DNA of 54,380 nt from IMG/VR virus record IMGVR_UViG_3300038479_000056, positions 1 through 54,380 of that record; one strand, 5' to 3'. The DNA is from a virus. Lineage: Duplodnaviria > Caudoviricetes. Below are positions 1-21,295 of the stretch, one piece after another; position 1 is the stretch's first letter, and every line of letters begins with the position of its first letter. Position numbers and translations under genes: made by a program. The notes below the pieces were generated by a model. The model saw nothing but the letters and a program-made list of their open reading frames with translations, ran no database searches and had not been told where the DNA came from.

Positions 1-1
1 T

Positions 2-61
2 CGGATTCATCACCGGGACCAACAGTTCAAGGAATCCAAGAAAAAGATCGTCTGTGCCTGA
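2..61 (+). CDS. 3' fragment of gene upstream of terminase (alternative allele)
   Basis: Frame 2 reads RIHHRDQQFKESKKKIVCA-TGA(59-61), overlapping the terL GTG at 54; the sequence was not seen elsewhere in the window. Confidence 0.45.
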   Translation, partial: RIHHRDQQFKESKKKIVCA

Positions 62-1856
62 CCTCATCTTTAAATATAACGTGTGGTGGCCGGAGGGCGC
101 GTCTGCCCTTGAGATCGAGCGCGAGTGCATTCGGCAGGGAGGCCGCTGGACGGTCAAAGGCAAGGAGCGCGGGGCGGGGTTGTTCGAGCATTTCAAGGCT
201 TTTTTTGATTTGTGCTGGCCGGAAGATCATCACAACCGCTGGAGCGATTTAATCTTGAGCAATCTGGTCACAAACCGGTTGACGGTCGTGGCTGGGCCGA
301 AAAACAGTCAAAAAACGAGGACGGGGGCGAAGTGGGCGCTGACCAAGTATTGGGCTTCGCCGTCGGACACGCAGGTTTTGCTCACCAGCACCGACCGGCG
401 CGGATTGCAGCAACGCATTCTGGGCGACATCAAAAGTCTTTTCGAGCGGGCCAGGAGAATTCATTCGCAGTTAGAGGGAAATTTCGTAGAGGCGCACGAC
501 GCCATTTTTACCGACGCCCTTTCGACCGGGGAAGGAACAAGGGACTGGCGGCGCGGCATCATCGGCGTGCCCATCCTGAGCAGCACCGGGGATTTTCAAG
601 GGCTGGCCATCAAGAATTTTGCCGGGATTAAGCAGGAACATCGCGTTTTGCTGGCGGACGAGATTCAGTTCGTGCCCGTTGAATACTTGAAAGTTCTTGA
701 CAGTCTTGACGATGGCGATTTCGCCGCGTGTATGCTGCTCAACCCGATAGCGGGCAACGGCAAGGCCGGGGACATGGTCAGCGAACCCATCCACGGTTGG
801 GGTAGTATCGGTGAAGTGACTAAGACCACGACCTGGAAGAACAAGTATGGCGGCGTTACCGTGCAGTTGGTGGGGACGGACAGTCCCAATTTCGATATTC
901 CGCTGGTCCATTATTACAAGAATTTGATTGATCGCAAGATGGCCGACGCGGTGGCGAGCCGTCCCGGAGGGAAGGACAGCCGGGAATGGTGGAGTCTCAT
1001 CATGGGCGTGCGCAAGAGCGGCGTGTTGGATTATCGAGTGCTGACGGTGGAGTTGGTTGAGAGCAATCACGGGTTTGACGATTGCAAATGGGAGATGGAA
1101 CCGGAGATCAAGGTCATCGGGATAGACGCCGGGTTCGGGGGCGATCCGTGCATTCTGACCTGGGCCATGTGCGGCAAGGAAGTGGGCAAGGGTCAGGTGA
1201 TGCGGTTTGGGGATCAGGAAGAAATTCCGATTGTGATCAGCCCGGCTTTGACCCCGGAAAAACAAATTGCGCTTTACGTCAAGAAACGGTGCGATGAACT
1301 GGGCGTGGCGCCGGAAGGAGTGTTCGCCGAATGCGGTATGCGGGCCACACTGATGCAGGAAATGGCGCTGATAGTCGGTGTGGGTGTCAACGCGGTCAAC
1401 GCGGGCGGGCCGGCCACACAAAGGCCGGTTCACAACGAATTTTACATTGACGATGAAAAGACAGGTCAAAAACGGCTCAAGACCTGTTACGAGCATTACA
1501 GCAAATTCGTCACCGAATTAAGTTTCACCGTGCGGGAATTGGTCATTGGCGGGCAGGCGCGGAAATTCCCCATTGGAGCGGCGGAAGAATTCGAGCAGAG
1601 AGAATCCCGGGACGTGTACAACAACCGGATTGAGCTTGAGACCAAGCGGGAATACAAAGAGCGCATGGGCGCGGGCAGCCCGAATTTATCGGACTCGGCA
1701 GCTATAACGGTGGAGGGCGCGCGCCGGATGGGGTTTGTGTTGGAACGGGTCAGCGACGGGACGGGCCAGGGTAAGGCCCCGGAGCGGGACTGGCTGGGGG
1801 ACGCCGCGGACGAACAGGAAAAACTCGAATCAGAACGCGAATTGATCTACGATTAG
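54..1856 (+). CDS. terL: Terminase large subunit
   Basis: Walker A-like VAGPKNSQKT, Walker B VLLADE, motif III-like LLNP, RNaseH/RuvC-like IGIDAGFGG, C-terminal SPNLSDS. Confidence 0.85.
   Translation: MPDLIFKYNVWWPEGASALEIERECIRQGGRWTVKGKERGAGLFEHFKAFFDLCWPEDHHNRWSDLILSNLVTNRLTVVAGPKNSQKTRTGAKWALTKYWASPSDTQVLLTSTDRRGLQQRILGDIKSLFERARRIHSQLEGNFVEAHDAIFTDALSTGEGTRDWRRGIIGVPILSSTGDFQGLAIKNFAGIKQEHRVLLADEIQFVPVEYLKVLDSLDDGDFAACMLLNPIAGNGKAGDMVSEPIHGWGSIGEVTKTTTWKNKYGGVTVQLVGTDSPNFDIPLVHYYKNLIDRKMADAVASRPGGKDSREWWSLIMGVRKSGVLDYRVLTVELVESNHGFDDCKWEMEPEIKVIGIDAGFGGDPCILTWAMCGKEVGKGQVMRFGDQEEIPIVISPALTPEKQIALYVKKRCDELGVAPEGVFAECGMRATLMQEMALIVGVGVNAVNAGGPATQRPVHNEFYIDDEKTGQKRLKTCYEHYSKFVTELSFTVRELVIGGQARKFPIGAAEEFEQRESRDVYNNRIELETKREYKERMGAGSPNLSDSAAITVEGARRMGFVLERVSDGTGQGKAPERDWLGDAADEQEKLESERELIYD
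68..194 (+). repeat. 127-nt exact repeat, copy 1
   Basis: Identical to 54254-54380. Confidence 0.95.
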
Positions 1857-1862
1857 CTGACT

Positions 1863-2516
1863 ATGAATAGAAACGAAACTCCTCCGGGCGGATTTCAATT
1901 CCATCAAGCGCAATCGGGCTGGTCCGCGCCAACACCAGTGGCCAGCACCTTTAACCAGACCGTTGAACTGATCATCCAGCATCGCCGGGCTAATCCGGCC
2001 ATGACCGCGCAGCACAAGCTCAGTCTGGACCCTGGCGCGGTCGGCACCGAGCTTGAGTCTTACACGGCGCGGAGATTGGGCCTGCCGGACCCAAAACCGG
2101 CTCCGGCACCGCCAACACGGCAGTCGATGTCGGGCAAGGTTGTTCAAGCTGTGGCAGACGTTAAAAAGCTGGCGGCGGGCGCGGCAGTCCTTTTTGAGTG
2201 GCAACAATCCGGCGACCCGCCAGTGGATCAGGAAGTGGCTAATCAGCGAGCAGTGATTTGTGCGACTTGTCCCAAGAATGAGGCAGCGGGATTCTCGCGT
2301 TATTTCACTGCGCCGGTGCAAGCTATCATTATGAAGCAGTTCGAGCGGTTGCATAAAATGAATCTAAAAACGCCTAGTGACGATAAGTTAAATGTTTGCC
2401 AGGCGTGTATCTGCCCGCTCAGGGGCAAGGTATGGGTTCCGTTGTCGTTGATTTTAAAACGGCTAAAACCGGAAGAACGCGCGGAGCTTGATCCTCGTTG
2501 CTGGATCACGAAATAG
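1863..2516 (+). CDS. Hypothetical protein with Cys motifs (possible metal binding)
   Basis: CATCPKN and CQACICP motifs; tightly packed after terL. Confidence 0.65.
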   Translation: MNRNETPPGGFQFHQAQSGWSAPTPVASTFNQTVELIIQHRRANPAMTAQHKLSLDPGAVGTELESYTARRLGLPDPKPAPAPPTRQSMSGKVVQAVADVKKLAAGAAVLFEWQQSGDPPVDQEVANQRAVICATCPKNEAAGFSRYFTAPVQAIIMKQFERLHKMNLKTPSDDKLNVCQACICPLRGKVWVPLSLILKRLKPEERAELDPRCWITK

Positions 2517-2843
2517 ATGAGCGACAAGAAGAAATGGCCGCTGGAGCAGGCGAAAGCCGTGGCCGTTGAATTGCTTTCTTACTTGCACGGCTTTTGTGAG
2601 CGGGCGCAAATCGCGGGCAGCATCCGGCGCGGCAAGTCTCTGGTGGGAGATATTGAGATTCTTTACATCCCCAAGATGGAGATGCGGAAAACGGATATGT
2701 TTTCGGCCCATGAAGTTGACCTGGCTGAAATTAAGGAGGGAAACACACTGTTGGAAACATTTGCAAAGCGTGTCAGCGATGCAATTACAGTAAACAAAAT
2801 AAACCGATCATTGCCGTTGTTCCAAATGGTCAACGTCTCTTAA
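2517..2843 (+). pseudogene. Truncated PolX/DNA polymerase beta-like nucleotidyltransferase
   Basis: AGSIRRGKSLVGDIEIL nucleotidyltransferase motif; similarity appears to end near residue 70, followed by an AT-rich tail. Confidence 0.6.
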
Positions 2844-2847
2844 TCTG

Positions 2848-3552
2848 ATGACCATTCTCTTGGCGTATATTTGCGTGACTGGTGGGCCAAAGACCCACGA
2901 ACTGGCCGCGCGATTCGTCGGGTCCTACTTAACTCACCCACCAGGAATTGAACACCAAACTGTGGTTGTCTGTAATGGCGGTCCACTTTCAACTGAAACG
3001 GCCCTGTTGTTCCTGCCGCTGGACGTAAAATTTTTTCCAAGGGAAAATGACGGCGGTTGGGATGTGAGCGGATTCCAAGATGTAGCCAAGAATTTCCAGT
3101 CAGATATGCAGGTAAATTTTGGTGAGAGTTGCTACCTGCACCGCCCCGGCTGGCTTCGGCAGCTTGCTCAAGCGTGGTCTGTTTTTGGCCCTGGGTTCTA
3201 TGGCGTGTTCTCAAGTCATGCCGTTCGCGCTCACCTGAACACGAACGCTTTTATGTGCGCGCCGAAGCACTTGACTGAATATCCAGCGGTGCGGACGCAT
3301 CGTGAGCGCTATGAGTTCGAGCACGGGCCGGACGCGCTGTGGCGGCGGCTGGACAGGAAAGGGGTGCCGGTGCGGTTGGTGACCTGGGACGGGACCTGGG
3401 CCAAGGGCGACTGGCGCAAGCCGGCCAACATCCTGTCCCGTGGCACGCAGGAAAATTCCCTCGTATTTTGCATTCATAACGAGAGATACTGGGCTGCTGA
3501 TCCGGCGACGAAGCGGAAATGGGCCAGTTACAGCGATGCGCCTTTCCATTGA
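2848..3552 (+). CDS. Glycosyltransferase-like hypothetical protein
   Basis: GT-A-like pattern (VVVCNGG, RENDGGWD); stop TGA is supplied by the end of tnpB element 1. Confidence 0.5.
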   Translation: MTILLAYICVTGGPKTHELAARFVGSYLTHPPGIEHQTVVVCNGGPLSTETALLFLPLDVKFFPRENDGGWDVSGFQDVAKNFQSDMQVNFGESCYLHRPGWLRQLAQAWSVFGPGFYGVFSSHAVRAHLNTNAFMCAPKHLTEYPAVRTHRERYEFEHGPDALWRRLDRKGVPVRLVTWDGTWAKGDWRKPANILSRGTQENSLVFCIHNERYWAADPATKRKWASYSDAPFH

Positions 3553-3710
3553 CATCCTCCCCGGCCTGAAGGCGCGGGGATTCCTTGAATACAAATATGC
3601 TAGACATTTGCAGAGCTAGGTTGGTTGACACTTCGACGAGCATGGCGCGCCGAGGCCGAAGCCTTGGCGTGACTGATATGCTCTCCATGTCCTTTAACCG
3701 GCTGTCCACC
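3549..3710 (-). ncRNA. Putative omegaRNA scaffold, element 1
   Basis: Position at tnpB 3' end/right end; guide predicted from flank TGGAAAGGCGCATCGC; 5' limit approximate. Confidence 0.55.
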
Positions 3711-4892
3711 GGCAAATTGAAGAATGTTTTTCGCGGCATTCTGATCTCTGTCCAAATGCTCGCCGCAGTTTTCGCATTTGAACTCGCGCACTTCCAAACC
3801 AAGGCTGCTGTGTATGTATCCGCAGGAATTGCACCGCCTGCTGCTTGGGAAGAATCTGTCTGCTACGCGCAACTCGCGGCCATACCAGGCACACTTGTAA
3901 GTCAGCATCGAACGGAACTGCCCAAAGCTGGCGCAACTGATATGCTTTGCGAGTTTGTGGTTCTTGACCATGCCGCGCACGTTCAAGTCCTCGATGGCCA
4001 GAACATCGAACCGGCGCACCAAATCTGTGGTGAGCTTGTCCAGTGTGTCCTTCCGGCAGTTGGCGATCTTGGCGTGCAAACGAGCCACTTTCAACCGCTG
4101 CTGATTCCAACGGCCACTGCCCTTGATGCGACGGGCGAGAACCCGTTGCAATCTCGCCAGCCTTGCGGCGTGGCGGGCAGTGTGGCGTGGGTTTGCCATC
4201 CGCTCGCCGTTACTCAAGGTTGCGAGCCGACTGATTCCAAGGTCAATCCCGACCATGCTTCCTGTCTTTGGGAGCGCGGCCTTGGCTGGTTCGTCCAGAC
4301 AAAGACTCACGAAATAGCGTCCATCCCTGCCCTTGGTTATCGTGCAGGTAGTAGGCTCGCTCGCGAAACCGCGACTCCATTTGACATGAAGCCGACCGAC
4401 TTTGGAAATTGTGAGGTTGCGGTTTGCCGCATCCCATTTGAAACCGCCAGAATGGTATTCGGCGGATTGCTTGTCGTGCTTGGAAGCAAACCTTGGATAG
4501 GCTGTCCGCTTGGCAAAGAAATTGGAGAACGCAGTTTGCAAGTGCCGCAATGCCTGCTGCTGTGGGATGCTGGACGATTCACGCAGAAAAGCAAACTCGC
4601 CGGTATTACGATGTTTAGTCCAAGCCGCGCTGCTGGCGTTGTAATTGACCGGCTTGCCGTCTTTGAAGCTGTCCGTGCGGAGGCGCAAGGCAAAATTGTA
4701 GGCGTGCCTGACACAGCCGAACTCCCGCGCCAGTTGCCGCGCTTGGCGGTCTGTCGGGTAGCATCGGAATGTCATGCGAACTTTCACTTGCAAGAATCTA
4801 CTCCGTCTTGTAAGGTTTGTCCAATGCTAATTTCAACAACTGAAAAAGCCGGGCTAAAGCCACGGGGTTTTCAACCCATAAGGAATGGATAA
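3585..4892 (+). other. Full-length antisense ORF across element 1
   Basis: 435 codons, codon-aligned with tnpB; its TAA overlaps the ATG at 4892 (TAATG); translation unproven. Confidence 0.4.
3600..4793 (-). CDS. tnpB: RNA-guided endonuclease TnpB
   Basis: FRCYPT N-terminus; RuvC GIDLG / IEDL / DRDQNAA; zinc finger CNSC..CENC. Confidence 0.95.
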   Translation of the reverse strand: MQVKVRMTFRCYPTDRQARQLAREFGCVRHAYNFALRLRTDSFKDGKPVNYNASSAAWTKHRNTGEFAFLRESSSIPQQQALRHLQTAFSNFFAKRTAYPRFASKHDKQSAEYHSGGFKWDAANRNLTISKVGRLHVKWSRGFASEPTTCTITKGRDGRYFVSLCLDEPAKAALPKTGSMVGIDLGISRLATLSNGERMANPRHTARHAARLARLQRVLARRIKGSGRWNQQRLKVARLHAKIANCRKDTLDKLTTDLVRRFDVLAIEDLNVRGMVKNHKLAKHISCASFGQFRSMLTYKCAWYGRELRVADRFFPSSRRCNSCGYIHSSLGLEVREFKCENCGEHLDRDQNAAKNILQFAGGQPVKGHGEHISHAKASASARHARRSVNQPSSANV

Positions 4893-5920
4893 TGAACGAG
4901 CCTATCCACATCATCAGCCTTGGGGCTGGAGTTCAATCGTCAACCGATGCGCTCATGGTTTCAGAGGGTGAACGCGGCCCTATGGTGTTGTGTGCGATCT
5001 GTGCAGACACCAAAAGAGAGCCTGGCAGCGTGTATTTGTGGCTCGCTAAACTTTGCGGGTGCGTTGTTCAGTTTCACGCAGACGGCAGGCCGTTTGTTGA
5101 ACCTGGAATTTATTCATCCGGGATGCTCAAGTTTCCGGTTCACATCGTAACTGCCGGGGATATTGTAGAGGATGCCCTGCGCGTCCGGCAACGGCTCGAT
5201 GGCAAAGGTTCATGGGTGCCTAGTGGCGTGCCTCATTATTCGATTAACGCGGACGGAACGCACGGCCACGGGCCAAGGCAATGCACGCATGATTTCAAAA
5301 TAGTTCCCATCGAAAGAGAATTGCGCCGCTTGATCGGGCGAGAGAAAATGTCGGCATGGAGGAAAGTTCACAAAACCGCCCTCAAAGAGATTTCAAAATA
5401 TCAGAAAGCCTTGGCCATTTGGAAACGCAATAGGAAACTAGACCCACTGCTTTTGCCTCCGACGTTTCCAAGTCGTGAATTCGATGAGTGCCAAGCTGAC
5501 CCGTTAGCTATACAGCGCATTGGCATCAGCACCGATGAGGCGTCCAGAGCGAAACCTTCGCGTGTTCCTTACTTGGTTCATATCTGGCCCCACCTTGACC
5601 ACGGCACAAATAGGGATGGCTGCATTGAATGGCTGGCGAAGCGTGGATTGGAAGCTCCTAAATCCGCCTGCGAATTTTGCCCCTACCATGATGACGATGA
5701 ATGGATTTGGTTGCGGGACATGGAGCCGGAAAGTTTTGAGAGGGCGGTAAAATTTGATTACGCTTACCGAGCCGCCAAAATACAGACGGTTTCAATCAAA
5801 GGCTTTGAACCCTTCATCCACCCCAGCCGACTGCCCTTGGACAAAGTCAAATTCAAAAAGTCGCACGGCAAACAACTAACCATGTTTAACAACGAGTGCG
5901 AAGGGATGTGCGGGGTATGA
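4892..5920 (+). CDS. PAPS reductase-like / PP-loop protein
   Basis: ISLGAGVQSS PP-loop, ADT..EP, KSACEFCPY, terminal ECEGMCGV. Confidence 0.75.
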   Translation: MNEPIHIISLGAGVQSSTDALMVSEGERGPMVLCAICADTKREPGSVYLWLAKLCGCVVQFHADGRPFVEPGIYSSGMLKFPVHIVTAGDIVEDALRVRQRLDGKGSWVPSGVPHYSINADGTHGHGPRQCTHDFKIVPIERELRRLIGREKMSAWRKVHKTALKEISKYQKALAIWKRNRKLDPLLLPPTFPSREFDECQADPLAIQRIGISTDEASRAKPSRVPYLVHIWPHLDHGTNRDGCIEWLAKRGLEAPKSACEFCPYHDDDEWIWLRDMEPESFERAVKFDYAYRAAKIQTVSIKGFEPFIHPSRLPLDKVKFKKSHGKQLTMFNNECEGMCGV

Positions 5921-6600
5921 AAACTGCCGTTTTTTTTCATACTCGGTTGAGCGGCGGTTACAATGTCGATTCGGGTGCGGCGGTGGAGCCCGGTTGGGGC
6001 CGGTCCCTTTTCTTGGAGCAAATGGCGGTTCTGGTCAAGAGCGGGTTGGCCGAGGCCGCCCAAGAATTCTTCATTGGTTTCAATGGGAGCCGCGGGGACT
6101 GGGCCTTTGTCTGTGACAATACTCCCGCCAAGGCCAAGATATTGCAGCACGGGGAGAACGCCCGGAGCTTGTTGCCGACGATGCGGTTTTTGCAGGACTG
6201 GTTGCCGGGCCACGAGGATTGGGCGGTGTTCTTTTCGCATGCCAAAGGAGCGTGTCATCCGAATGATCCTCTTACGACCCGGTGGCGGAATTGCATGACG
6301 CGGCATTGCATCACGAACTGGCGGCGGTGCGTGGCCGATTTGGAGGCCGGTTACGACGCGGTAGGTTGCCACTGGCTTCACAACAGGCCGAATGACCCAA
6401 ACGCGGACAGGTGGGGGGCCAACAGCTACTTTGGCGGGGTGTTCTGGGGCAGCAAGGCCAGGTATCTATTGACTCTGCCGCCGTTGCCGGACCTGGCGAC
6501 GGATCGGCACTCGTTTTATCTGCCCGAATTGTGGCTGGGCAATGGCAAGCCCAAGGTAAAGGACTACGCCCAAGGGCACGCGATTGGAGCCTGTCCGTGA
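5917..6600 (+). CDS. Glycosyltransferase-like hypothetical protein
   Basis: ATGA-coupled start; FFSHAKG, YDAVGC, FGGVFW and ELWLG motifs resemble phage GT-associated proteins. Confidence 0.5.
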   Translation: MKTAVFFHTRLSGGYNVDSGAAVEPGWGRSLFLEQMAVLVKSGLAEAAQEFFIGFNGSRGDWAFVCDNTPAKAKILQHGENARSLLPTMRFLQDWLPGHEDWAVFFSHAKGACHPNDPLTTRWRNCMTRHCITNWRRCVADLEAGYDAVGCHWLHNRPNDPNADRWGANSYFGGVFWGSKARYLLTLPPLPDLATDRHSFYLPELWLGNGKPKVKDYAQGHAIGACP

Positions 6601-7187
6601 ATGTGACCATCATTATGCCATTCTCGCGCGCGCACAATGCCGAGGCGATCAAGGCGTCCTTTGTTTCCGCCTGTGACGGGTTCAACGGCAAAGCCAGGCT
6701 GATTGCCGTTTGTTCCGATGAGGCGCACGTCGGTTTATTTGACGAATCGGTGCTGACTTTTTTGCCGCCGGGTCTGGACTGGTGCTATTTCAAATGCAAT
6801 CAAGCCTTGGAAAATTTGCAGCCGTCCAGCCCCGAAGATTATTTCGGTTTTGTGTGCGACGACGATCTTTATGAGCCGGGCTTTTTCGCGTCCCTGGAAC
6901 AACTGATCGGGGCCAGCCGCCCGCGAGTTATTGTCGTCAACATGAAGCGATGGTTTCACGAGGTCGCTGTGCGGGATGAATTGTCGGCCTGGCCGGATTC
7001 GATGCGGGTTGGGTTGGTGGGTTTGGAGCAATTCTACATTCGGGGCGACATCATGGGGCGGTGGCGGTTCAACCAAAATGTCTCGCACGGCGACGGAGAT
7101 TTGATGGCGCGACTGCACGCGGAGATGCCCCACGATTTCGTTTTCTTCCGGCACTTGTTCGTCCACTGGAACAAACTTCCCGCATGA
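6597..7187 (+). CDS. GT-A (family 2-like) glycosyltransferase
   Basis: GTGA-coupled start; VTIIMP N-terminus; YFGFVCDDDLY DxD motif. Confidence 0.65.
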   Translation: MNVTIIMPFSRAHNAEAIKASFVSACDGFNGKARLIAVCSDEAHVGLFDESVLTFLPPGLDWCYFKCNQALENLQPSSPEDYFGFVCDDDLYEPGFFASLEQLIGASRPRVIVVNMKRWFHEVAVRDELSAWPDSMRVGLVGLEQFYIRGDIMGRWRFNQNVSHGDGDLMARLHAEMPHDFVFFRHLFVHWNKLPA

Positions 7188-9586
7188 CAACCGCACCCAA
7201 CAAGAGTAAGAGTCAATTTATGAAATGGGACAAAGTTGGTGATGTAGAAGAAATTGTCTGGTTCTTAAGAACGAATGATTTAACCCGCGGGGCAAACCGG
7301 GAGAAGATCAACCGACTCTTTAATGGGGGACTTCCGTACAGTAAAGCGCAAGAAGCTGAAAATTCAGTTAGTGTCAACCGCAATTTCCTGACTGGCCCAA
7401 ACATTCTCACATCGGGGCGAGGTCAATGGAACAATGCTTTCCTCAAGCAAAAGACCTATTTCGGGGTCAGTCTTGATTCCGGTCCGGTCAACAAGCGGCA
7501 AGAGGCCGGGGCCATCATCACGCGCAACATCAATCGGCAGTTGAAGAAATGCCGGGCGCAGATGGAGCAAATCCGGGCCGAAGGCGCACAAGTTATTTTA
7601 CACGGTATCGCGCCTAGCGGATTTAAAGACCGGCGCTGTCCCATTCTAACGTCTTTGCCGGTTGCGAGTCTTCTTATTCCTGATGAAACTGATTTGGATT
7701 TTGAGAACCTAGAGTATTTCGCCGTATTCCGGGAATGGACGCCCTACCAACTTTACGCGCTAACGCACGGGCCGAAGGTTGATCCTGGTTGGAACATGGA
7801 AGCCGTCCAAGCTGAGTGGGATTATGTTAAAGAACAGACCCGAAAAGAATTGCCCGGTAGCAACACCTTGCAATTTATGCCTGAAAGAATAATGGAGCTT
7901 GAAAAACAGGCTGCTCTTTGGGGCACAACCGCCGTGCCGACGGTGGACGTGTGGGATTTCTACTTTCGCGAGGCTGAGGACGGGCAAGGTTGGTATCGGC
8001 GCATCATGCTGGATTGGGGCGCGGCTGAGGGCGGTCTGAACGCGAACAGCGCCCAGCCTGAGAGCCGAAACGGAGCAGGCGAAAAAGATTACGGCGGGTT
8101 TCTTTACACCAGCGGCCAGCGTAAGTACGCCAACAGCCTGAGCGAGATTTTACAGTGCCAATTTGGGGATTGCAGCGCTGTGGCGCCGTTCAAGTATCAT
8201 TCCGTGCGGAGCCTGGGCTGGCTGCTGTGGGGCGTGTGCGAGATCGAGAACCGGTTGCGCTGCCGATTCACCGAAAACATGTTTATGAACATGATGTGGT
8301 GGTTTAAGTGCGCCAGCGGCGGGGACATGGCGCGGGTCAAGAAAGCCATGTTCGAGCAGATCGGGGTCATTCCCGCCGGCATAACGATGATGACGGAGAA
8401 CGAACGGTTTAAGCCCGACGAAAAGTTGTGGGCGGTTATGGTGGAGCAGATTGAAAAAACCATGAATCAAAGCGCGGGATCGTTCATGGGCAACCCGGCT
8501 GACATTGGCAAGGAAGAGACAGCCACGGGCACAATGGCGCGCGTTCACAGCGTTGGCCAGATGATGGGGGGGATGCTGACACTGGCCTACGAATACAGCA
8601 AATACAAGTATCAGGAACAGAGCCGCCGGTTCTGCATCAAAAACAGCCCGTATCAGATGGTGAAAGATTTTCGGCTGGCTTGCCTCAAAGACGGCCTGGA
8701 CGCGGAAATGCTGGATTCGAGCCGGTGGAACATCGAGCCAGACCGGGCTTTGGGCGACGGCAATAAGATTTTGGAAATGGCCATCGCGCAAGGTCTGGAA
8801 AACATCAGGAAAAACGCGACACCGGACGGGCAACGGCTCATTGACCATCAGTACGTCGTGACGCTGACGGACCGGCCCGACCTGGCCGAGGCGCTTTTTC
8901 CATTGCAAGGCCAGAAGAAGCTCAGTCCGAGCAGTCACGACGCGCAACTGGCCGCCGACAGGATTCTGCGCGGGCTGCAATTCGCCATTCCGTCCGAGGC
9001 CGTGCCGGAAGATTACGTCATGGTCTGGCTGGGCGACATGGCGGCCGTCATCAAGCAGATTCAAGGGACGGGCAACGTCGGCACGATGCCGGAACTTTTG
9101 GGCCTGGCCAACCTGGGCCAGCACATCGGGCAAGCCATTGGCCTGATGGCGAGCGGGCATGGCAAGGAGCCGGGGCACGGCCAGAAACGGGGCGAGGCCG
9201 AGGACATGCACAAGATCAAGCAGTATAAGGACGCCCTGGGCAAGATGATGAACCTGGTCAAAGGCTTCGCGCAACGGCTCCAAGAGCAGCAGCAAAAGGG
9301 CAACGGGCACGGACTCGACCCGGAGAAGATGGCCAATATTCAGACCGATCAAATGAAGGTCAAGGCCAAAATTCAACTTGGTCAGGAGAGCCACGCGGCC
9401 AAGACCGCGCAGCGGCAGGCTGCATTTGAGCTTGAGCAACGGCGGAAAGACCGTGAAAGCGAGGCGGAAACCCGGCGCCAGAATCAGCGGACGGGCCAGG
9501 AGATCGCGCATAAACACCTGGACAAACTGCTGGACGCCCACCACCGAATGCTGGGCGAAGGCGACGAAAGGACTCAACAGGATTAA
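7184..9586 (+). CDS. Putative portal protein
   Basis: About 800 aa; lies between terL and scaffold/capsid; ETAT motif; Gln-rich coiled-coil tail; ATGA-coupled start. Confidence 0.65.
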   Translation: MTTAPNKSKSQFMKWDKVGDVEEIVWFLRTNDLTRGANREKINRLFNGGLPYSKAQEAENSVSVNRNFLTGPNILTSGRGQWNNAFLKQKTYFGVSLDSGPVNKRQEAGAIITRNINRQLKKCRAQMEQIRAEGAQVILHGIAPSGFKDRRCPILTSLPVASLLIPDETDLDFENLEYFAVFREWTPYQLYALTHGPKVDPGWNMEAVQAEWDYVKEQTRKELPGSNTLQFMPERIMELEKQAALWGTTAVPTVDVWDFYFREAEDGQGWYRRIMLDWGAAEGGLNANSAQPESRNGAGEKDYGGFLYTSGQRKYANSLSEILQCQFGDCSAVAPFKYHSVRSLGWLLWGVCEIENRLRCRFTENMFMNMMWWFKCASGGDMARVKKAMFEQIGVIPAGITMMTENERFKPDEKLWAVMVEQIEKTMNQSAGSFMGNPADIGKEETATGTMARVHSVGQMMGGMLTLAYEYSKYKYQEQSRRFCIKNSPYQMVKDFRLACLKDGLDAEMLDSSRWNIEPDRALGDGNKILEMAIAQGLENIRKNATPDGQRLIDHQYVVTLTDRPDLAEALFPLQGQKKLSPSSHDAQLAADRILRGLQFAIPSEAVPEDYVMVWLGDMAAVIKQIQGTGNVGTMPELLGLANLGQHIGQAIGLMASGHGKEPGHGQKRGEAEDMHKIKQYKDALGKMMNLVKGFAQRLQEQQQKGNGHGLDPEKMANIQTDQMKVKAKIQLGQESHAAKTAQRQAAFELEQRRKDRESEAETRRQNQRTGQEIAHKHLDKLLDAHHRMLGEGDERTQQD

Positions 9587-9740
9587 AGTTCCCCGGCCTA
9601 AAGGCACGGGGATTTAGCCGAGTCCTTCACCAACACCAAATCGCCATGCGGAACGCACGATTCAGAGTCAATATCGACAGACCCGATGCTTTTAGCGGCT
9701 TTAATGCTCGCCGTCTCCGAAGCGTTGCACGCTATGGAGA
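9583..9740 (-). ncRNA. Putative omegaRNA scaffold, element 2
   Basis: Overlaps tnpB 3' end and right-end hairpin; guide predicted TCCTGTTGAGTCCTTT; 5' limit approximate. Confidence 0.5.
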
Positions 9741-10779
9741 CAGACCGCGCCCGGATGTTCTTCGAGGCTTGGCGGTCTGCGTCGTCCTTGTGGCCGCACT
9801 TCTGACAACAGAAGCGCAAGCCTTTCCGGTTCGATGCCGAGACATGGCCGCAGGCACTACACCCACGGCTTGTGTTGCGGGGGCTGACGGACTCCAATTC
9901 GATTCCGACAGCAGCAGCCTTATAGGCGATCTTGAATCGCATATCGGCATACGGCCAGCGGTGAACTTTGGAACGGAGGTCTTTCCCCTTGCTCAGAGAA
10001 CTGTCTCGAATGTTCTCCAAGTTCTCGACCACGATGCGCCTTGCTCCAACCTCAACCGCGTAGCTGACCAGTGCCTTACTTGCCGTGTGGAGCAAGTGCG
10101 CGGTTACGGCAGCCTCATGCCCGGACATCCTTCGCAGGAGCCTCCGGGCACTTCTGGTGCCAACCGACTGGACAGCGGCGCGGGTGCGCCGGATACAAGA
10201 ACGACGGTGATTCAACACCCCGCCGTGGAAGAAAAATGGTTTGGCGTTTGCCGAGTTGGTAGCGACCAGCATTCGCTTGATGCCGAAATCACAGCCGACA
10301 ATGCAGCCCTCGGACTTCGGTTCGGGAATCTCGACTTCGTGAGCCAAGCAGAGAAACCACTGGTTGCCTATACGCTTGATCTTGGAGTCTTTCCAGTCGC
10401 CCTCTGGCAGTGGGCGGGAATCCACGACGGTCAGAAGTTCCCCCCAAAGTGTGATGCCTTTTTTGGTGCGATTGAAATCCCGCTTCCATACCGTCGGGAT
10501 AACGGCACGGGAAAACTTCGCAAGCCTCCAACGCTTGTTCGCCTTGGCGGTCTTGTAGGTGGCGCAGACGGTTTTGCAGAGGGAGCAGGCAAGTTGGGAA
10601 GGCAGCCCCATCTCTCGGAGGTTGGCGTAGTGAGCTTTTGCCAGTCGATTCGAGTTCAACTCCTCGGTCTTGAAGGCAATATCGGAAAGCCAGTTTGCAG
10701 CTTTCAGCCAAACAGCAAGCAATCCGTCAGCTTTTGTGCTGCCGGAAATCTTGAGCTTGACTGTGCGGATTGCTTTCAC
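9598..10779 (-). CDS. tnpB: RNA-guided endonuclease TnpB
   Basis: RTVKLK N-terminus; GCDFG / VVENL / DADRQAS; CSAC..CQKC. Confidence 0.95.
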   Translation of the reverse strand: MKAIRTVKLKISGSTKADGLLAVWLKAANWLSDIAFKTEELNSNRLAKAHYANLREMGLPSQLACSLCKTVCATYKTAKANKRWRLAKFSRAVIPTVWKRDFNRTKKGITLWGELLTVVDSRPLPEGDWKDSKIKRIGNQWFLCLAHEVEIPEPKSEGCIVGCDFGIKRMLVATNSANAKPFFFHGGVLNHRRSCIRRTRAAVQSVGTRSARRLLRRMSGHEAAVTAHLLHTASKALVSYAVEVGARRIVVENLENIRDSSLSKGKDLRSKVHRWPYADMRFKIAYKAAAVGIELESVSPRNTSRGCSACGHVSASNRKGLRFCCQKCGHKDDADRQASKNIRARSVSIACNASETASIKAAKSIGSVDIDSESCVPHGDLVLVKDSAKSPCL

Positions 10780-10787
10780 TACATTGA

Positions 10788-10816
10788 AGGCTACTACAAA
10801 GAAAAAACAATGTCAA
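10788..10816 (-). promoter_or_regulatory. Sigma70-like promoter of tnpB2
   Basis: TTGACA-17-TAGCCT ending about 9 nt before the GTG. Confidence 0.55.
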
Positions 10817-10845
10817 CCGAATTGCGAAGCGTGAAAAACAAATAA
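10810..10845 (+). pseudogene. tnpA: Putative tnpA N-terminal stub
   Basis: MSTELRSVKNK, divergent from tnpB; matches MSNELR of element 4. Confidence 0.45.
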
Positions 10846-10849
10846 GTCA

Positions 10850-12142
10850 ATGCAGGATATTTCTCAAATTACAGCGTGCTTGATTTCGTCGGGATTATTC
10901 CAGCCTATGGCGCATATTTTAGCCACGAAATGCAAAAGGGTTTTAATCTGGTCGCCGGATGAAAGAGATTTTCCGTCCGTGAAACAGGCCAGCATGGGCA
11001 GCGGCTTTCCCGACATCGAACGGGTGCGGGAGTTTTGGCCGTTGAAGAACGAAATAAGTTGCTTCGTTTTTCCCGATGTCTCCATGCCCGGCCTGCAACT
11101 CGAATTGGAGTCCCAAGGATACCCCGTTTGGGGAAGCCGCAACGGGGTTGATCTGGAATTGAAGCGGGAACGGTTCATGGAGGTCTTGGGCGAGATCGGT
11201 CTGGACGTGCCGCCGTTCCATGTCTGTGCTGGCATGGACGAACTCCGGGCCTATCTCCGGGACAATGAAGATCAATTCGTCAAGATCAGCCGTTTCCGGT
11301 TCGACATGGAAACGCACCATTGGCGGAACTGGGCGATGGACGAGAGCTGGTTGGATTGGCTTGCTTACAGCTTAGGGCCGGTCAAGGACGTGCTTCGGTT
11401 CCTGGTCTTTGCCAAGATCGAGACCGATCTTGAAATCGGTGGCGACACGTTCAATGTGCGCGGGCAATGGCCGGGGCTGATGCTGAACGCTTATGAGTAC
11501 AAGGATTCCACCTTGTTTTCGGCTGTGACCAAGCGCGAGGAAATGCCGGAACAGATTCAGGAAATAATGACGGCACTGACACCGTACTTGACCGAGTGCA
11601 ATTACCGGAACCAGATCAGTTTCGAGGACAGGGTCAAGGGCGACAAACATTACTTCATAGATGCCACGATGCGCGGAGGTATGCCGAGTTCTGGCAGTCA
11701 GCAGCTTCTTTGGGGCAACTTTCCTGAGATCGTTTGGGCCGGAGCAAATGGGGAACTGGTCGAGCCGGTGCCGTGGGCAAAGTTCAGCTTGGAGTGCATG
11801 GTGACGGCGGAAGCCGGGGACGCGCCGTGGATAAAATGCGAGTTTGACCAGGCACTTTTCCCGTGGCTTCGGCTTTCGGATTGCGCCCTTATCAATGGCA
11901 TTCACTGTTTCCCCCAAGAAGAATCGCATGGAGGGGAACTGGGTTGGTTGGTGGCTCTTGGGGATAGCCCGCAGGAAGTCTTAGACGAGGCAAAACGGCT
12001 GGCTGATTTGCTCCCGGACGGGTGCGATGCCAAGTTGGAAAATCTGGTCGGCCTCATCAAAGAAGTCGAAACCGGAGAGAAAGCGGGCGTGCCTTTTACC
12101 AGTTATCCAATTCCAACTCCCGGAGAAGTAGTTGCCGAATGA
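10850..12142 (+). CDS. ATP-grasp fold protein (PurD-like)
   Basis: GYPVWGS..LELKRERFMEVLGEIGLDVPPF, FVKIS and YFIDATMRGG resemble GAR synthetase-like ATP-grasp proteins. Confidence 0.65.
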   Translation: MQDISQITACLISSGLFQPMAHILATKCKRVLIWSPDERDFPSVKQASMGSGFPDIERVREFWPLKNEISCFVFPDVSMPGLQLELESQGYPVWGSRNGVDLELKRERFMEVLGEIGLDVPPFHVCAGMDELRAYLRDNEDQFVKISRFRFDMETHHWRNWAMDESWLDWLAYSLGPVKDVLRFLVFAKIETDLEIGGDTFNVRGQWPGLMLNAYEYKDSTLFSAVTKREEMPEQIQEIMTALTPYLTECNYRNQISFEDRVKGDKHYFIDATMRGGMPSSGSQQLLWGNFPEIVWAGANGELVEPVPWAKFSLECMVTAEAGDAPWIKCEFDQALFPWLRLSDCALINGIHCFPQEESHGGELGWLVALGDSPQEVLDEAKRLADLLPDGCDAKLENLVGLIKEVETGEKAGVPFTSYPIPTPGEVVAE

Positions 12143-12143
12143 T

Positions 12144-12374
12144 ATGAACCCGCTCCCAAACCTGCCGCCAGTTCAGTCCGCGCCCGCGCCAGCCCCGGCC
12201 CATGACCATACCGTGCGCGAGGGCCAGACCTGTCCGACCTGCAACCGGGTCAAGGAATACGCTACGACCAAGCCGGGCGTGATGCCGGGGAAAGGCACCA
12301 AAATCCGTGTCATGGCGACCAAGAGCCGGGGCCGGAAACAGGCTAAGGACGCACGAAAGGTGCGTTTCTATTAA
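12144..12374 (+). CDS. Small basic hypothetical protein (CxxC)
   Basis: CPTC motif; fills the gap between genes. Confidence 0.5.
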   Translation: MNPLPNLPPVQSAPAPAPAHDHTVREGQTCPTCNRVKEYATTKPGVMPGKGTKIRVMATKSRGRKQAKDARKVRFY

Positions 12375-12405
12375 CATGAAAAGACGCAATTTTTTAACAG
12401 CAAGT

Positions 12406-13302
12406 ATGGTTGCCGCTCCGTTCCCTTGGTTCGGGGGAAAGTCTCGCGCTGCGGAGCTTATCTGGAGCCGTCTTGGACCGGTCTCGAATTACGTCGAGCC
12501 TTTCGCGGGATCGTTGGCCGTGCTGCTAAATCGACCGCACCCTCCCAAGGCAGAAACCGTAAACGATCTGGACTGCTACCTTGCAAACTTTTGGCGTGCC
12601 GTCGCCGCCGTGCCCGAGGAAGTGGCGCGCTGGGCGGATTGGCCGGTAAATGAAGCCGACCTGCACGCCCGGCATACCGAGCTAATAGCCGCGAAAACCG
12701 CGCATCGAGAGCGGATGCTGACGGAGCCGGATTATTTTGACGCACGGCTTGCTGGGTGGTGGGTATGGGGGCAGTGCGCGTGGATCGGAACTGGGTGGAC
12801 TGTAGAGAAATCTAGGCAATTGCCGCACCTCGGGGACGCGGGGCGCGGTGTGAACCGGCAGTTGCCGCACCTTGGGGACGCGTGTCAGGAGTATTTCCTG
12901 ACTCTCTCACGCCGCCTGCGCCGCACGCGTGTGGCGTGTGGTCATTGGGACCGCGTGCTCGGTGATAGCGTGACTTGGAGGCATGGCATGACAGGGATTG
13001 TGCTAGACCCTCCTTACGACCAGGGTGAGATGGAATACGCCTCGCACACGGGCCTTTCGAGCGAAGTGCGTCACTGGTGTCTTGAGAACGGAAATCACGA
13101 ACTTTTGCGCATCGCGCTGTGCGGTTTGGAAGGGGAACACGATTTGCCAGGCTGGGATTGCGTCCCGTGGAAAGGTCGAGGCGGCTACGGCTCACAGCGA
13201 TCCGAAGGAAAGAACGAAAACCGAAAACTTGAACGCATCTGGTTCTCTCCAAATTGCGTGCCGGCCTATGACCTTTTTTTCAAAGTAGCCCACTACCAAT
13301 AA
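12406..13302 (+). CDS. DNA adenine methyltransferase (D12/Dam-like)
   Basis: PFPWFGGKS, YVEPFAGS, VNDLD, DPPY; alternative start at 12376. Confidence 0.9.
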   Translation: MVAAPFPWFGGKSRAAELIWSRLGPVSNYVEPFAGSLAVLLNRPHPPKAETVNDLDCYLANFWRAVAAVPEEVARWADWPVNEADLHARHTELIAAKTAHRERMLTEPDYFDARLAGWWVWGQCAWIGTGWTVEKSRQLPHLGDAGRGVNRQLPHLGDACQEYFLTLSRRLRRTRVACGHWDRVLGDSVTWRHGMTGIVLDPPYDQGEMEYASHTGLSSEVRHWCLENGNHELLRIALCGLEGEHDLPGWDCVPWKGRGGYGSQRSEGKNENRKLERIWFSPNCVPAYDLFFKVAHYQ

Positions 13303-13303
13303 T

Positions 13304-13582
13304 ATGCTTCGTTCACCCCGCGTTAAATTTGTTACAGGCCCGCACAAGGCTGCGTTTGAAACCATCGTTGCCAGCCAAGCCTTTGAAGAAGCGACTCTGG
13401 CCGCCCTACTCGAGTACCAAGCCAGTCTGCCGCTGGATTGCGACTTGAATCAAGCTGTTGCAGCTCATAACCAGATGGTGGGCGCGCGCCGGTTCCTGGA
13501 CACGCTTTGTTCCATCCACAAACCCGAAACCGTCCATAAACAGGCCGAACAAACCGGCTTGGACGAAACAGCAGGAGTATAA
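13304..13582 (+). CDS. Hypothetical protein preceding scaffold
   Basis: Tight packing; helical composition. Confidence 0.6.
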   Translation: MLRSPRVKFVTGPHKAAFETIVASQAFEEATLAALLEYQASLPLDCDLNQAVAAHNQMVGARRFLDTLCSIHKPETVHKQAEQTGLDETAGV

Positions 13583-13585
13583 CCT

Positions 13586-14854
13586 ATGTCAGCCGCATTA
13601 GCCCCGCCCCCAGCCGCCCCAGCGCCAGCAGCCGCCCCGCCCGCTTCGACGCCACCAACACCCTCTTCCGCGCCGCCAGCGCCTTCTCCTGAACGAAGAG
13701 GCGGTTCGCTCCGGGAAGAAATCGGCGCGGACTTTGACGAGGCGGATAAGCCGCGTGAACGCGGCCCGGATGGCAAGTTCAAGCCCGCCGACTCGAAACC
13801 GCCTGACCCAAAACCAGTCGAGCCGCCACCCGAACCGAAGCCCGGTGAAGTCACGCCGCCGGCTCCGGAAAAGCCCAAAGGCCAGGAACGGACGGCGGAT
13901 CTGCGCGCCAGCCGTGATAATTGGCAGCGCAAAGCGACTGAGCTTGAGCCGAAAGTGGCTGATCTTGAGCGGCAACTGGCCGAGTTTCGCGCCAAACCGC
14001 CCGTGGACCCCGGCCCGATCCAAGCGCAACTAAAGTCGTTGCAGGACGAAAACGCCCGGTTGCAGGAGACGGTCAGGTTCACGGCCTATAAAGAGTCCAG
14101 GGAATATCTGGAAACGGTTAGGAAACCGCTGGATGACGAATGGGCGGCGACGGCTGAGGACATCAATGGGTTCACGGTCGAATTGGCCGATGGCACCAGC
14201 CGCCCGGTGACGACCACCGACATCATGCGTCTGGGCGATGCCAACCTGAACGGCAAACAGCGCCAAGACCTCGCCCGGGAATGGTTTGGGGATTCTGCCG
14301 CGGCGATCCTTGCGCACGTCAATAATCTGCGCCATTTGTCCACCAAAGAAGCTCAAGCCGTGGCCAATGCCAAAACCAAGGCGGGCGAGCGCCAGACACA
14401 AATGACCACGGCCAGGACGCAGCAGGACGCGGCTTTGGGCAATGAATATGTCCAGTCGCAGACCGCGCTCGCTACGAAATATCCGAAATGGTTTGGGCCG
14501 GACCCGGCTGATGCGCCCGGAAACGAATTGCTCACCAAAGGCTTTCATTACGCCGATGCGGTGTTCAACAATGCGCCGGTCAAACAGGAGAACGGGACAA
14601 TGGCCCCGCTGACGCCGCAACAGCGCGTGCGCCGGCTGGCCGTCATCCGGGCCAAAGCCGCCAATCACGACCGGCTCGCGGCCAGGGTCAAGACCATGCA
14701 GCAAACCATAGCTGATCTAGAATCGGATTTGGCTGAATTCGGCAAGTCTGTCCCTGGTGGCGGCACCGCTTCCGCTCCGGGCGCGGCACCCAAGTACAAG
14801 AGCCTGACTGACGAAATCAACGCGGACTTCGAGGCCGCAGACAGGAAACGGTAA
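13586..14854 (+). CDS. Putative capsid scaffolding protein
   Basis: Pro-rich N-terminus with RGPDGKF, coiled coils, located upstream of capsid. Confidence 0.6.
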   Translation: MSAALAPPPAAPAPAAAPPASTPPTPSSAPPAPSPERRGGSLREEIGADFDEADKPRERGPDGKFKPADSKPPDPKPVEPPPEPKPGEVTPPAPEKPKGQERTADLRASRDNWQRKATELEPKVADLERQLAEFRAKPPVDPGPIQAQLKSLQDENARLQETVRFTAYKESREYLETVRKPLDDEWAATAEDINGFTVELADGTSRPVTTTDIMRLGDANLNGKQRQDLAREWFGDSAAAILAHVNNLRHLSTKEAQAVANAKTKAGERQTQMTTARTQQDAALGNEYVQSQTALATKYPKWFGPDPADAPGNELLTKGFHYADAVFNNAPVKQENGTMAPLTPQQRVRRLAVIRAKAANHDRLAARVKTMQQTIADLESDLAEFGKSVPGGGTASAPGAAPKYKSLTDEINADFEAADRKR

Positions 14855-15204
14855 TGACCGATCAGCCCTACATGGATTGCACCCGGCCCATCACCCAGGT
14901 GCGTCCTTTGCGCGGCCAGGTCTTGGTCGAACTGTTACCGGCCCCGTTCCAGATCGGGAGCATCTCGCTCCCGCCACAGACCAAACACCGGGCCGGGGCT
15001 GGGGGCGCGCTGGTCCGGGAAATGGAGAAATACCCACTTTTGGAAGGGTTGGTCAGAGCTGTAAATCCAACGCCGGGGGAAAAACCGGAAATTGTTCTTG
15101 GAGATCGAATCTTATGTCGCTTTTATGCCGGAAAGAATTTACGACACGCCGGAAAGGAGTGGAAGTTGCTTAAGCTGACTGACCTTGAAGGGGTTTTTGT
15201 TTGA
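14854..15204 (+). CDS. GroES/Cpn10-like co-chaperonin
   Basis: VRPLRGQVLVE...GLVRAV...LGDRILCRFYAG...LLKLTDLEGV. Confidence 0.75.
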   Translation: MTDQPYMDCTRPITQVRPLRGQVLVELLPAPFQIGSISLPPQTKHRAGAGGALVREMEKYPLLEGLVRAVNPTPGEKPEIVLGDRILCRFYAGKNLRHAGKEWKLLKLTDLEGVFV

Positions 15205-15263
15205 CCCCGACCCGATCCTGGGCCAGATTTGAACCGTCAGAATTGTTTGTTCTGGTGTGTTTG

Positions 15264-15294
15264 CCCCGGCTGCTGAGTGGTAGCCGGGGTTTTT
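15264..15294 (+). terminator. Intrinsic terminator
   Basis: CCCCGGCT..AGCCGGGG followed by TTTTT. Confidence 0.7.
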
Positions 15295-15361
15295 ATTGTT
15301 TTGCTCATGGCGTCTTTGCCTGTGACTGGCGGCATAGGCGCGATTGTAGGCTGTGAATTTT

Positions 15362-15532
15362 TCAGGATTGCGCAGTCGTGCTCGACGTTTGTGTTCTCTC
15401 CAATACGTTCTTTTTTGGTCTGCCGCCGAGCTTTCCGTTGCGCCGGGCCGCTCTGATTTTGGCCATTGATTTTGATTTTCCACCGACACGCCCACCGCGT
15501 CGGCCAAGAATAACTGCGTGTTTGTTTGGCAT
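15362..15532 (-). CDS. Small basic GG..RxNGKxGGRP protein
   Basis: Paralogous to the N-terminus of 48966-49415. Confidence 0.6.
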   Translation of the reverse strand: MPNKHAVILGRRGGRVGGKSKSMAKIRAARRNGKLGGRPKKNVLERTQTSSTTAQS

Positions 15533-15595
15533 ATCATTAACCCAAACAATACAGATTGCGCTTTGGGTTTGCCAGAAAAATCGTAAAAAAAGAAT

Positions 15596-15624
15596 TTGAC
15601 GAATCAAATCACCAGTTCTAAGTT
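15596..15624 (+). promoter_or_regulatory. Sigma70-like promoter for capsid operon
   Basis: TTGACG-17-TAAGTT with an A-rich upstream tract. Confidence 0.65.
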
Positions 15625-15630
15625 CGCATC

Positions 15631-15885
15631 ACAAAGTCCGCTGGTAGCAATACCTGGGCGGACAATGCCGAGTCCAATCTCGGAAGTCTGCGACGACTTC
15701 ATCTCGAAGCGCGGTTTCAGACAAATCCCAAAATGGCCGAGCAAGGATGCCGGCCAAAGCGGGCCGCAAACGCCGTAGCGGTTCGCCTTAAAATGCGGCC
15801 TGGGTTCCCAACTCAGGATGAGGGTTCGCTCCTCACGAACGGCATGTCCCAACGCAGAACGTGTGTCGTTGCGGTATGTGCCGAT
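15631..15885 (+). ncRNA. Multi-hairpin structured leader/ncRNA
   Basis: About nine consecutive stem-loops read by eye. Confidence 0.55.
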
Positions 15886-16083
15886 TTCCGACCTGTCTGC
15901 AAAATTTAATTCCTGTTAAGAGAGAGAAGAAGCATATCGATTGCCGAGCGTTTAGTGATATTTTGAGCCGCCGCGCGGAACATTTGGATTCCGAAATTAT
16001 CGTTGACCTTCATCCCCAAGACGGTTGGATTGGGCATGTGGCGACCGGCAAATTTCCCGCTGAACAAGGCGTTCAGCACACCT
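15876..16083 (+). CDS. Major capsid protein, exon 1
   Basis: Joins exon 2 in frame (GVQHT-F-DRFNQVW); start codon uncertain (15861 or 15876). Confidence 0.7.
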
Positions 16084-16355
16084 TAACGTAAGTCAGGGGT
16101 GCTTTTTGCGAGTAACGAACAAAATCGCAAGATGAAAAATCCAGGAAAATCGGTGAACGCTAAAGCCAATGGCCAAGCCAATACCGAGGCGAGCCGGGAC
16201 AACCCGGAAGCCGTAACGAGTCAGTGTGGCAGAGCGAGAGCCTGCCGCCGCGCTGGAAGCCGAATTACAGGCTAAGATGGACTCTGACCCTGCTGGAAAC
16301 AGCAGGAGCTTGGCAGAAATGACCAAGCCGCTCCGGGTGGAGTAGTAACAAATTG
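16084..16355 (+). ncRNA. Group I self-splicing intron, no ORF, 272 nt
   Basis: P1 CACCT/GGGTG with U.G pair; P10 GTCAG/TTGAC; P3 TCCAG/CTGGA; P4 TCGGTG/TACCGA; R CGTAACGAGTC; S AAGATGGACTC; terminal G16355. Confidence 0.9.
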
Positions 16356-17809: not shown

Positions 17810-17823
17810 TTGCGGTGTGGGTT

Positions 17824-17860
17824 GACGGGGCCGGGTTGTTGTTGGCCCGGCTCCGTTTCC
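17824..17860 (+). terminator. Terminator-like hairpin after capsid gene
   Basis: GACGGGGCCGGG..CCCGGCTCCGTT. Confidence 0.55.
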
Positions 17861-17874
17861 CGTAAAGGCTACTT

Positions 17875-18186: not shown

Positions 18187-18190
18187 TTTT

Positions 18191-18562: not shown

Positions 18563-18616
18563 CGCCAGAAAATTTGACCATGAAAAACCTGCATCCTGTT
18601 TATCGGGAGGTTCCAA

Positions 18617-18976: not shown

Positions 18977-18994
18977 TTCTAGGACTAGTACAGT

Positions 18995-20095: not shown

Positions 20096-20098
20096 TTT

Positions 20099-20889: not shown

Positions 20890-20904
20890 ACGAAAGGAAA
20901 AATT

Positions 20905-21147: not shown

Positions 21148-21295
21148 TGCGCGCGCGCCCCACAGTCAAAGACGTGATGCGCGACCTGGCCTTGTTGCGG
21201 CGGCTGCCCCCGGTCCGGCCCAGCCCGCGCGCCAAACCGCGCCCCGTAGAACACCGGGGGTTGACAAAGACCGGGCCAAGAGGAAAAGTAACGGG

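Follow-up and report, generated by a model that had tools for sequence, protein, structure and literature searches.

The question raised by this locus is why the same 127-nt stretch stands at both ends of a phage record with a different neighbour upstream of each copy. The window analyzed here is an entire virus record (IMG/VR IMGVR_UViG_3300038479_000056; Duplodnaviria, Caudoviricetes) of 54,380 nt, classed as linear and with an estimated completeness of 96%. Positions 68-194 equal 54254-54380 at 100% identity over exactly 127 nt, and the letters upstream of the two copies diverge at once, ...GACCTCAT|CTTTAAA (60-74) versus ...TAATTGAA|CTTTAAA (54246-54260; in longer form ...GGGGTAATTGAA|), just as had been described when the sequence was first read. 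The end copy lies behind TnpB element 4 (gene tnpB4), and the start copy lies at the native start of a probable large terminase gene (terL). Our reading, to which we give a probability of about 0.6, is that a TnpB-only element beside terL coexists with an element-free variant carrying an intact target, and that the outcome would be homing with co-conversion or loss of the target.

The simplest reading of the geometry is that of two assembly-graph edges, one of 194 nt (1-194) and a loop starting and ending with one 127-mer; 127 is a common largest k in metagenome assemblers. The repeat, which the original prediction had taken for an assembler overlap, indeed behaves as a circle-closing one, being exact over 127 nt at 100% identity with a 67-nt spur as its offset. 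The distance between the copies (54254-68) gives a circle of 54,186 bp, and the record is a complete closed circle of that size (68..54253 plus the overlap) with the spur attached, filed as linear because the spur offsets the end repeat. The assembler would have joined these 67 nt from a rarer co-occurring variant onto the circular genome; as a practical lesson, they sufficed to get a complete circular genome classed as linear. Within the window, positions 1-67 have no second copy and are covered by no repeat family, probes 11-37 and 44-67 match only themselves with up to 3 mismatches allowed (0/100 shuffles), and no meaningful second copy of 1-14 was found.

The spur is a real allele, carried by a separate metagenome contig of 9,072 nt (L007), which was retrieved by one metagenome scan using window 30-67. 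Window 15-8894 corresponds to L007 193-9072 without gaps at 99.85% over 8,880 nt, and the 127-mer is exact in L007 at 246-372. Upstream, L007 contains an open reading frame (ORF) of 57 aa (66..239) ending in ...KKKIVCA*, whose stop overlaps the GTG at window 54. The ORF is ribbon-helix-helix (RHH)-like, with a sub-threshold match to Omega_Repress (E 0.017, 15.8 bits versus a cut-off of 33.3), and has no homologue in the window nor in four terL relatives. The earlier description of the start copy as a native gene end running into terL is thus borne out by TGA 59-61, GTG 54 and the existence of the same context in L007. Window 1-14 and L007 179-192 differ with the frame kept (R-IHH-R versus R-LADI-R, 3 nt shorter, AGG -> CGG); since the frame is kept, the difference looks like a coding variant, a second allele of the small RHH-like gene, and not like a chimera.

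The first 10 kb of the window are present, among the matches listed, in 20 metagenome runs of peat and permafrost belonging to 14 studies. Four runs (X1, X2, X5 and X9) were compared over 44500-54380, each as contigs from another assembler. In X1 a 20,971-nt contig (depth 24.3) spans 44500 through the element to 54283, and in a 249-nt contig (depth 6.55) 219 letters ending ...CCTGACCTCAT / ...AAGAAAAAGATCGTCTGTGCCTGACCTCAT are joined to 54254-54283; this shorter contig shares its ending ...GTGCCTGACCTCAT before 54254 with a loose end of X5, a run in which contig cover is absent in 3 of 30 bins. The occupied junction is fully bridged by a 7,724-nt contig in X2, and X9 holds the element interior (53502-54235) without mismatch at depth 15. 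Altogether the occupied junction was bridged in one of the four runs and nearly so in a second, and the element-free end was seen in two of the four as well as in L007. Element-bearing genomes, commoner by depth, and element-free ones occur in one run, X1, in agreement with the earlier proposal that both contexts coexist in a sample; carrier and target-bearing genomes side by side, as homing demands, are found in X1 and in the window's own assembly.

The original prediction had also regarded 1-194 as the empty counterpart of the occupied site, and this part did not hold, as no match to the left flank is found there and another segment, here called Z, stands in its place. The X5 contig tracks the window to 53045 and then continues with 93 letters of other sequence (GGGTTGGGTTGG...); because it leaves the window there, the left edge of the element is placed at 53045|53046. 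Neither window 1-67 nor L007 1-245 matches anything in the circle, and the true empty site (...GGTTCAT, 53039-53045, joined to CTTTAAAT) was not found. From these unmatched stretches and the divergence of X5 it follows that a segment has given way to the element. Z and the 1,208-nt element occupy the same position as alternatives, and the two alleles are not an insertion/excision pair. Z is at least about 275 nt long, or 338 nt if its 93-nt and 245-nt parts do not overlap, and contains the 57-aa RHH-like gene plus, in native form, the opening 4 2/3 codons of the probable terL. Its first 30 letters are absent from the window (up to 3 mismatches) and its first 16 from the 11 loci compared, L007 included; exact-pattern scans of viral_contigs returned neither these 30 letters nor the L007 RHH-gene region, the element-free junction or the occupied one. 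TCAT stands directly 5' of both edges, ...GGTTCAT|element and ...GACCTCAT|CTTTAAAT; across the window its frequency is 0.0037 per position.

That Z could be a scar of the element was considered and rejected, since its 245 nt resemble neither element 4 nor 52000-53045, in either orientation, more than shuffled sequence does. To the left of the element, a 100-nt X1 contig (depth 4) shares only the 31 nt at 52955-52985 with the window and has other letters on both sides, and 52985 is linked to 54254 across unknown letters in an X9 contig; there may be a second element-free variant diverging at 52985, with a diverged 5' half of the leftward 64-aa ORF. No Pfam or PHROG match was obtained for this ORF or for a 194-aa ORF. 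As a possible template for repair, the right flank is shared at 99.85% over 8880 nt, and the left flank is represented by one X5 contig reaching 53045 and by the other variant diverging at 52985.

TnpB4 carries Cas12f1-like TNB and OrfB_IS605 domains (PF07282, E 4.7e-20, 71.9 bits, cut-off 26.3; PF01385, E 2.4e-08, 34.7 bits, cut-off 30.5). The D, E and D of its GIDLG, ALEDL and DADTNAA motifs are presumably the RuvC catalytic positions. The protein aligns to 27 distinct PDB sequences of Cas12f/TnpB at E<=0.001 (best 9.4e-23), and opposite 9nzq the three motifs read lgiDlG/ialEdl/adaDtnaa versus lgvDmG/iqmEdl/anaDfnas. The last 164 nt of the element reach a minimum free energy of -60 kcal/mol (z -2.88, 0/200 shuffles as good), and the plan of a hairpin followed by TA(A/G)TTGA(A/C/T) is common to five related right ends, those of element 3 and of four genomic relatives with 33-52% protein identity. 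Because hairpin and motif are kept, 54253|54254 is taken as the real right end, and the assignment of the end copy to the right end of TnpB element 4 stands. No Rfam family matched in the window. No close relative of TnpB4 was found in viral_contigs, and a scan of genome_contigs returned distant ones only (10 loci, 33-52% identity, the nearest at 52%), so that a target-adjacent motif (TAM) is not readable from multiple copies.

The left end is different. The 400 nt preceding tnpB4 yielded no right-end-like hairpin (score 16 versus a null mean of 16.2); such a left-end hairpin is present in element 3 (score 30) and element 1 (score 24) and absent in elements 2 and 4. Element 4 also lacks the left end of hairpin plus AGGAATTG common to element 3 and two relatives. 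The left end is thus probably truncated, which argues against present-day transposition, and a search of the whole 54,380-nt record for TnpA (PF01797) gave no match at E<=10. Judged by its protein, its omega-RNA-like end and the TAM symmetry of its edges, element 4 is classified as a TnpB-only element of IS200/IS605 type; it has no TnpA, no matched end hairpins and no clean empty site.

In TnpB systems the guide is made up of some 16 nt that follow the element's right end, and the target requires a TAM. The omega RNA of element 4 would thus carry CTTTAAATATAACGTG as guide. With up to 3 mismatches allowed this 16-mer occurs only at 68 (after cctcat) and at 54254 (after attgaa), so that, as the original prediction had it, TCAT precedes the right-flank match only where the element is absent. 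It is plausible that TCAT plus CTTTAAATATAACGTG represents a TAM with its guide match. The variant would carry the predicted target because Z ends in TCAT directly before the right-end flank, and the element-bearing genome would be protected because TGAA stands in place of TCAT. The motif is shared 5' of the left end (TTCAT|, 53041-45) and of the target (CTCAT|, 63-67), one site each; ISGst5, an IS200/IS605 element, uses TTCAT as its TAM, according to the accessible part of 10.1101/2023.03.14.532601.

A TnpB restores its own transposon after excision. For element 4, we infer cleavage and homing of the following kind: in a co-infected cell the TnpB4-omega RNA complex would cut variant genomes within the first terL codons, and repair from the carrier genome would copy the element and erase Z (homing with co-conversion), or else the cut variant genome would be lost. 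The present arrangement could have arisen by insertion of the element at one TCAT and subsequent loss of the segment up to the other, or the element could have been imported by recombination from another phage. Given an apparently truncated left end and the lack of TnpA, spread based on recombination appears more likely than transposition. TnpB-dependent, TnpA-independent spread, termed "non-restorative homing", has been reported in a plasmid population, and homing into co-infecting phages was proposed there with validation pending (PMC13565253, as far as its accessible text goes); phage TnpB genes have been noted earlier, including in a cyanophage preprint (10.64898/2026.02.14.705889, accessible portion). 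A limited literature search found no described phage population with both a TnpB element and an intact target allele. A natural phage population holding a carrier and a near-identical target-bearing genome makes TnpB spread between phages directly testable.

The gene under the predicted target is the 600-aa ORF, a probable terL. Its homologues are 51-56% identical in 4 viral contigs, it resembles P22 gene 2 protein (large terminase nuclease domain) weakly (E 0.57), and its nearest Atlas clusters are viral, some of them named terminase, which are to be read as leads only. The junction falls inside codon 5, GTG CCT GAC CTC AT|C TTT AAA TAT. The occupied allele reads GGAGG-5 nt-TTG AA|C TTT just past an in-frame TAA (translation ...REG*LNFKYNVWW), which would give M-N-F-K-Y..., a terL start of normal length; the 4 terL relatives begin 3-5 codons before a conserved KY/RY, and both GTG 54 and TTG 54249 fit this. 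No terminator-like site was found between tnpB4 and terL. Element 4 probably supplies a promoter for terL, and terL is probably expressed with, or coupled to, tnpB4, because the tnpB4 stop falls in the terL start region. The coordinates of all these features are collected in Table 1.

Table 1. Features of the element 4-terL locus in the 54,380-nt window.
Feature	Coordinates	Strand	Remarks
Spur, minor element-free allele	1..67	+	3' end of small RHH-like ORF (frame 2, TGA 59-61) and native terL start GTG 54-56
Probable large terminase terL, 600 aa	54..1856	+	Start as in element-free allele
TCAT, candidate TAM	64..67	+	Directly 5' of guide match in element-free allele
Predicted element 4 guide target CTTTAAATATAACGTG	68..83	+	Inside terL codons 5-10
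Overlap, left copy, start of circle	68..194	+	127-nt identity
Leftward ORF, 64 aa	52850..53045	-	ATG (CAT 53043-45 on +) abuts element 4 left edge
TTCAT	53041..53045	+	Directly 5' of element left edge
TnpB element 4, 1208 nt	53046..54253	+	Left end with promoter-like site, tnpB, omega-RNA-like right end
Promoter-like TTGACA-16-TATATT	53074..53101	+	11/12, in left end; 1 site versus shuffle mean 0.8
tnpB4, 383 aa	53108..54259	+	Stop TAA 54257-59, 6 nt outside element in terL flank
Omega-RNA-like scaffold	54090..54253	+	Terminal hairpin 54225-54245, then TAATTGAA
GGAGG 54239-43, TAA 54246-48, TTG 54249-51	54239..54251	+	Shine-Dalgarno-like site and new in-frame terL start
Overlap, right copy	54254..54380	+	First 16 nt = predicted guide of element 4 omega RNA

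Four other explanations were weighed. The locus could be an ordinary recombination cassette upstream of terL, in which TnpB4 just rides along, either inactive or without effect on the variant, and the TCATs are fortuitous. Several observations fit this: the region is variable, the 100-nt X1 contig and the X9 joint suggesting that one variant departs from the window at 52985; window 1-14 differs in frame from the RHH tail of L007; X5 and X9 have other sequence in place of element 3; and the left end of element 4 is without the expected hairpin. Nevertheless, the right breakpoint matches the conserved terminal motif of the element to the base, TCAT occurs at both edges against its low background, and the GIDLG, ALEDL and DADTNAA motifs are present together with an intact ORF, promoter-like site and structured 3' end, thus we regard an inert mosaic as rather unlikely. 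We find it improbable that the element inserted 3' of one TCAT and that a TnpA-type reaction or a slip between TCATs then removed Z, re-aiming the guide at terL. TCAT at both edges of the replaced segment, the exactness of both edges and the existence of TTCAT-type target motifs in the insertion sequence family (accessible part of 10.1101/2023.03.14.532601) would suit such a course; the phage nevertheless has no TnpA, the left end shows no right-end-like hairpin, no intermediate with both element and Z appears among the rows listed, and such a deletion reaction of IS200/IS605 elements is itself conjectural.

That 1-194 is the precisely excised or never-occupied site of the same genome would agree with the identical right flank and the TCAT preceding it, but it is very improbable and was rejected, since the spur and L007 1-245 are unmatched left of the element or anywhere in the circle and the left flank continues into different letters in X5 from 53045 on. 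The spur as an assembly chimera or a prophage-host junction is hardly credible at all: a 67-nt spur at a contig end is a typical chimera location and window 1-14 does differ from L007, yet that contig, from another assembly, repeats the junction together with 245 nt of upstream sequence, the X1 and X5 contigs of a different assembler show it too, and within the spur the end of an ORF overlaps the terL start, the 1-14 difference being in frame; contradicted by L007 and by the X1 and X5 contigs, this explanation was likewise rejected.

Several points weigh against the reading of a homing element facing a target-bearing variant. The left edge 53045|53046 comes from one contig of one run (X5), seen through its loose end, and Z is known in part, by its first 30 and last 245 nt; because a second variant seemingly diverges at 52985, the region may be a mosaic hot spot. 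Both X1 junction contigs extend 30 letters beyond the junction against a bridge rule of 31 letters, a reach which is that expected for a k=31 graph at a fork. The depths are per-contig means, and 24.3 and 6.55, set beside 25.1 for the terL contig, are not additive. X1 may be the source sample of the window and thus a second assembly, not a second sample. The candidate TAM comes from a single left flank and a single target; should the left end be truncated, the TCAT at 53042-45 may be there by chance, and its CAT doubles as the start codon of the 64-aa ORF. The terL candidate itself has no Pfam or PHROG match.

Element 4 belongs to a genome with four tnpB genes, at 3600..4793(-), 9598..10779(-), 45390..46505(+) and 53108..54259(+), whose products are 26-45% identical to one another within one 54-kb phage genome. 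At element 3 (45305-46551), contigs of X5 and X9 depart from the window after 45304 and rejoin it at 46552, carrying other letters in the interval, so that the element appears replaced there and not simply absent; X5 is without depth over 45490-46149. Right of this element lies a 659-aa ORF of the SNF2 helicase family at 46845-48824(-) (PF00176 E 1.4e-25, PF00271 E 3.8e-11). Near 49173 an entering X5 contig is preceded by right-end letters of element 1 (…TTCAGGCCGGGGAGGATGTCAAT) and 7 more, which suggests an extra element-1-type copy in another sample. Elsewhere, a 266-aa ORF at 32695-33495(-) is built of about 25 tandem 18-nt units coding for IGEGAS/IGEEAR-type hexapeptides (hexapeptide-repeat, beta-helix-like). 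Two adjacent ORFs of 382 aa (24401-25549) and 328 aa (25558-26544) have several stretches in common, spaced by about 1.1 kb and with 74-78% nucleotide identity, and look like a tandem gene duplication. Runs of CCTGTC/CCTGCT units occupy 51346-51465 and 51897-51929, with an inverted copy about 450 nt away, and contigs of the other assembler break at them (X1 and X2 stop at 51354 and resume at 51461). A wider proposal is that phage TnpB-only elements serve in nature as RNA-guided weapons of homing or exclusion, with element 4 aimed at a rival's terL start, overwriting an RHH cassette and having joined the terL expression unit, and the four unrelated TnpB elements, several of them polymorphic from sample to sample, forming an arsenal reshuffled across peat sites; this we put forward tentatively, as something that may well prove wrong.

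Compared with known systems, element 4 stands closest to the TnpB of IS200/IS605 elements (ISDra2 and the ISGst elements of G. stearothermophilus; accessible part of 10.1101/2023.03.14.532601; structures 8exa/8h1j). It shares with them the zinc-ribbon (TNB) and OrfB_IS605 domains and, as predicted from the nucleotide sequence, would also share a structured RNA that overlaps the 3' part of the gene and stops at the element end, a flank-derived guide with a 4-5-nt motif 5' of the target (TTCAT in ISGst5), and protection of the occupied site by replacement of that motif with the element end; the match of TnpB4 to ISDra2 TnpB reaches only E 1.4e-06. Unlike IS200/IS605 elements, it has no TnpA in its genome and no matched left hairpin, its element-free allele holds another segment and not the left joined to the right flank, and its tnpB ORF spans the whole RNA scaffold and stops in the flank. 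The Arc (RHH) proteins of IS605 (10.64898/2026.09.24.754181, as far as its accessible text goes) likewise place a small RHH-like ORF beside a TnpB-related junction; here, however, it lies in the element-free allele and not inside the element, and its Omega_Repress match is sub-threshold.

The spread of IS605 on plasmids (PMC13565253, accessible text) likewise needs only TnpB, its RNA, a homologous replicon bearing the target, and recombination; that was an experiment with clean presence or absence of the element, whereas the present case is a natural phage population with a replaced segment. In the portion of the same source dealing with T-even phages, free-standing homing endonucleases are likewise nuclease genes lying between conserved phage genes, and in intronless homing, or localized marker exclusion, the target is likewise in the competitor's version of a neighbouring gene. 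T-even homing endonucleases recognize their target by protein, whereas element 4 would use an RNA guide plus TAM, both read here from the DNA letters. The outcome expected is the same in both, namely that the nuclease gene is copied along with markers close to it while the competitor loses its segment, with boundaries of the converted tract that vary.

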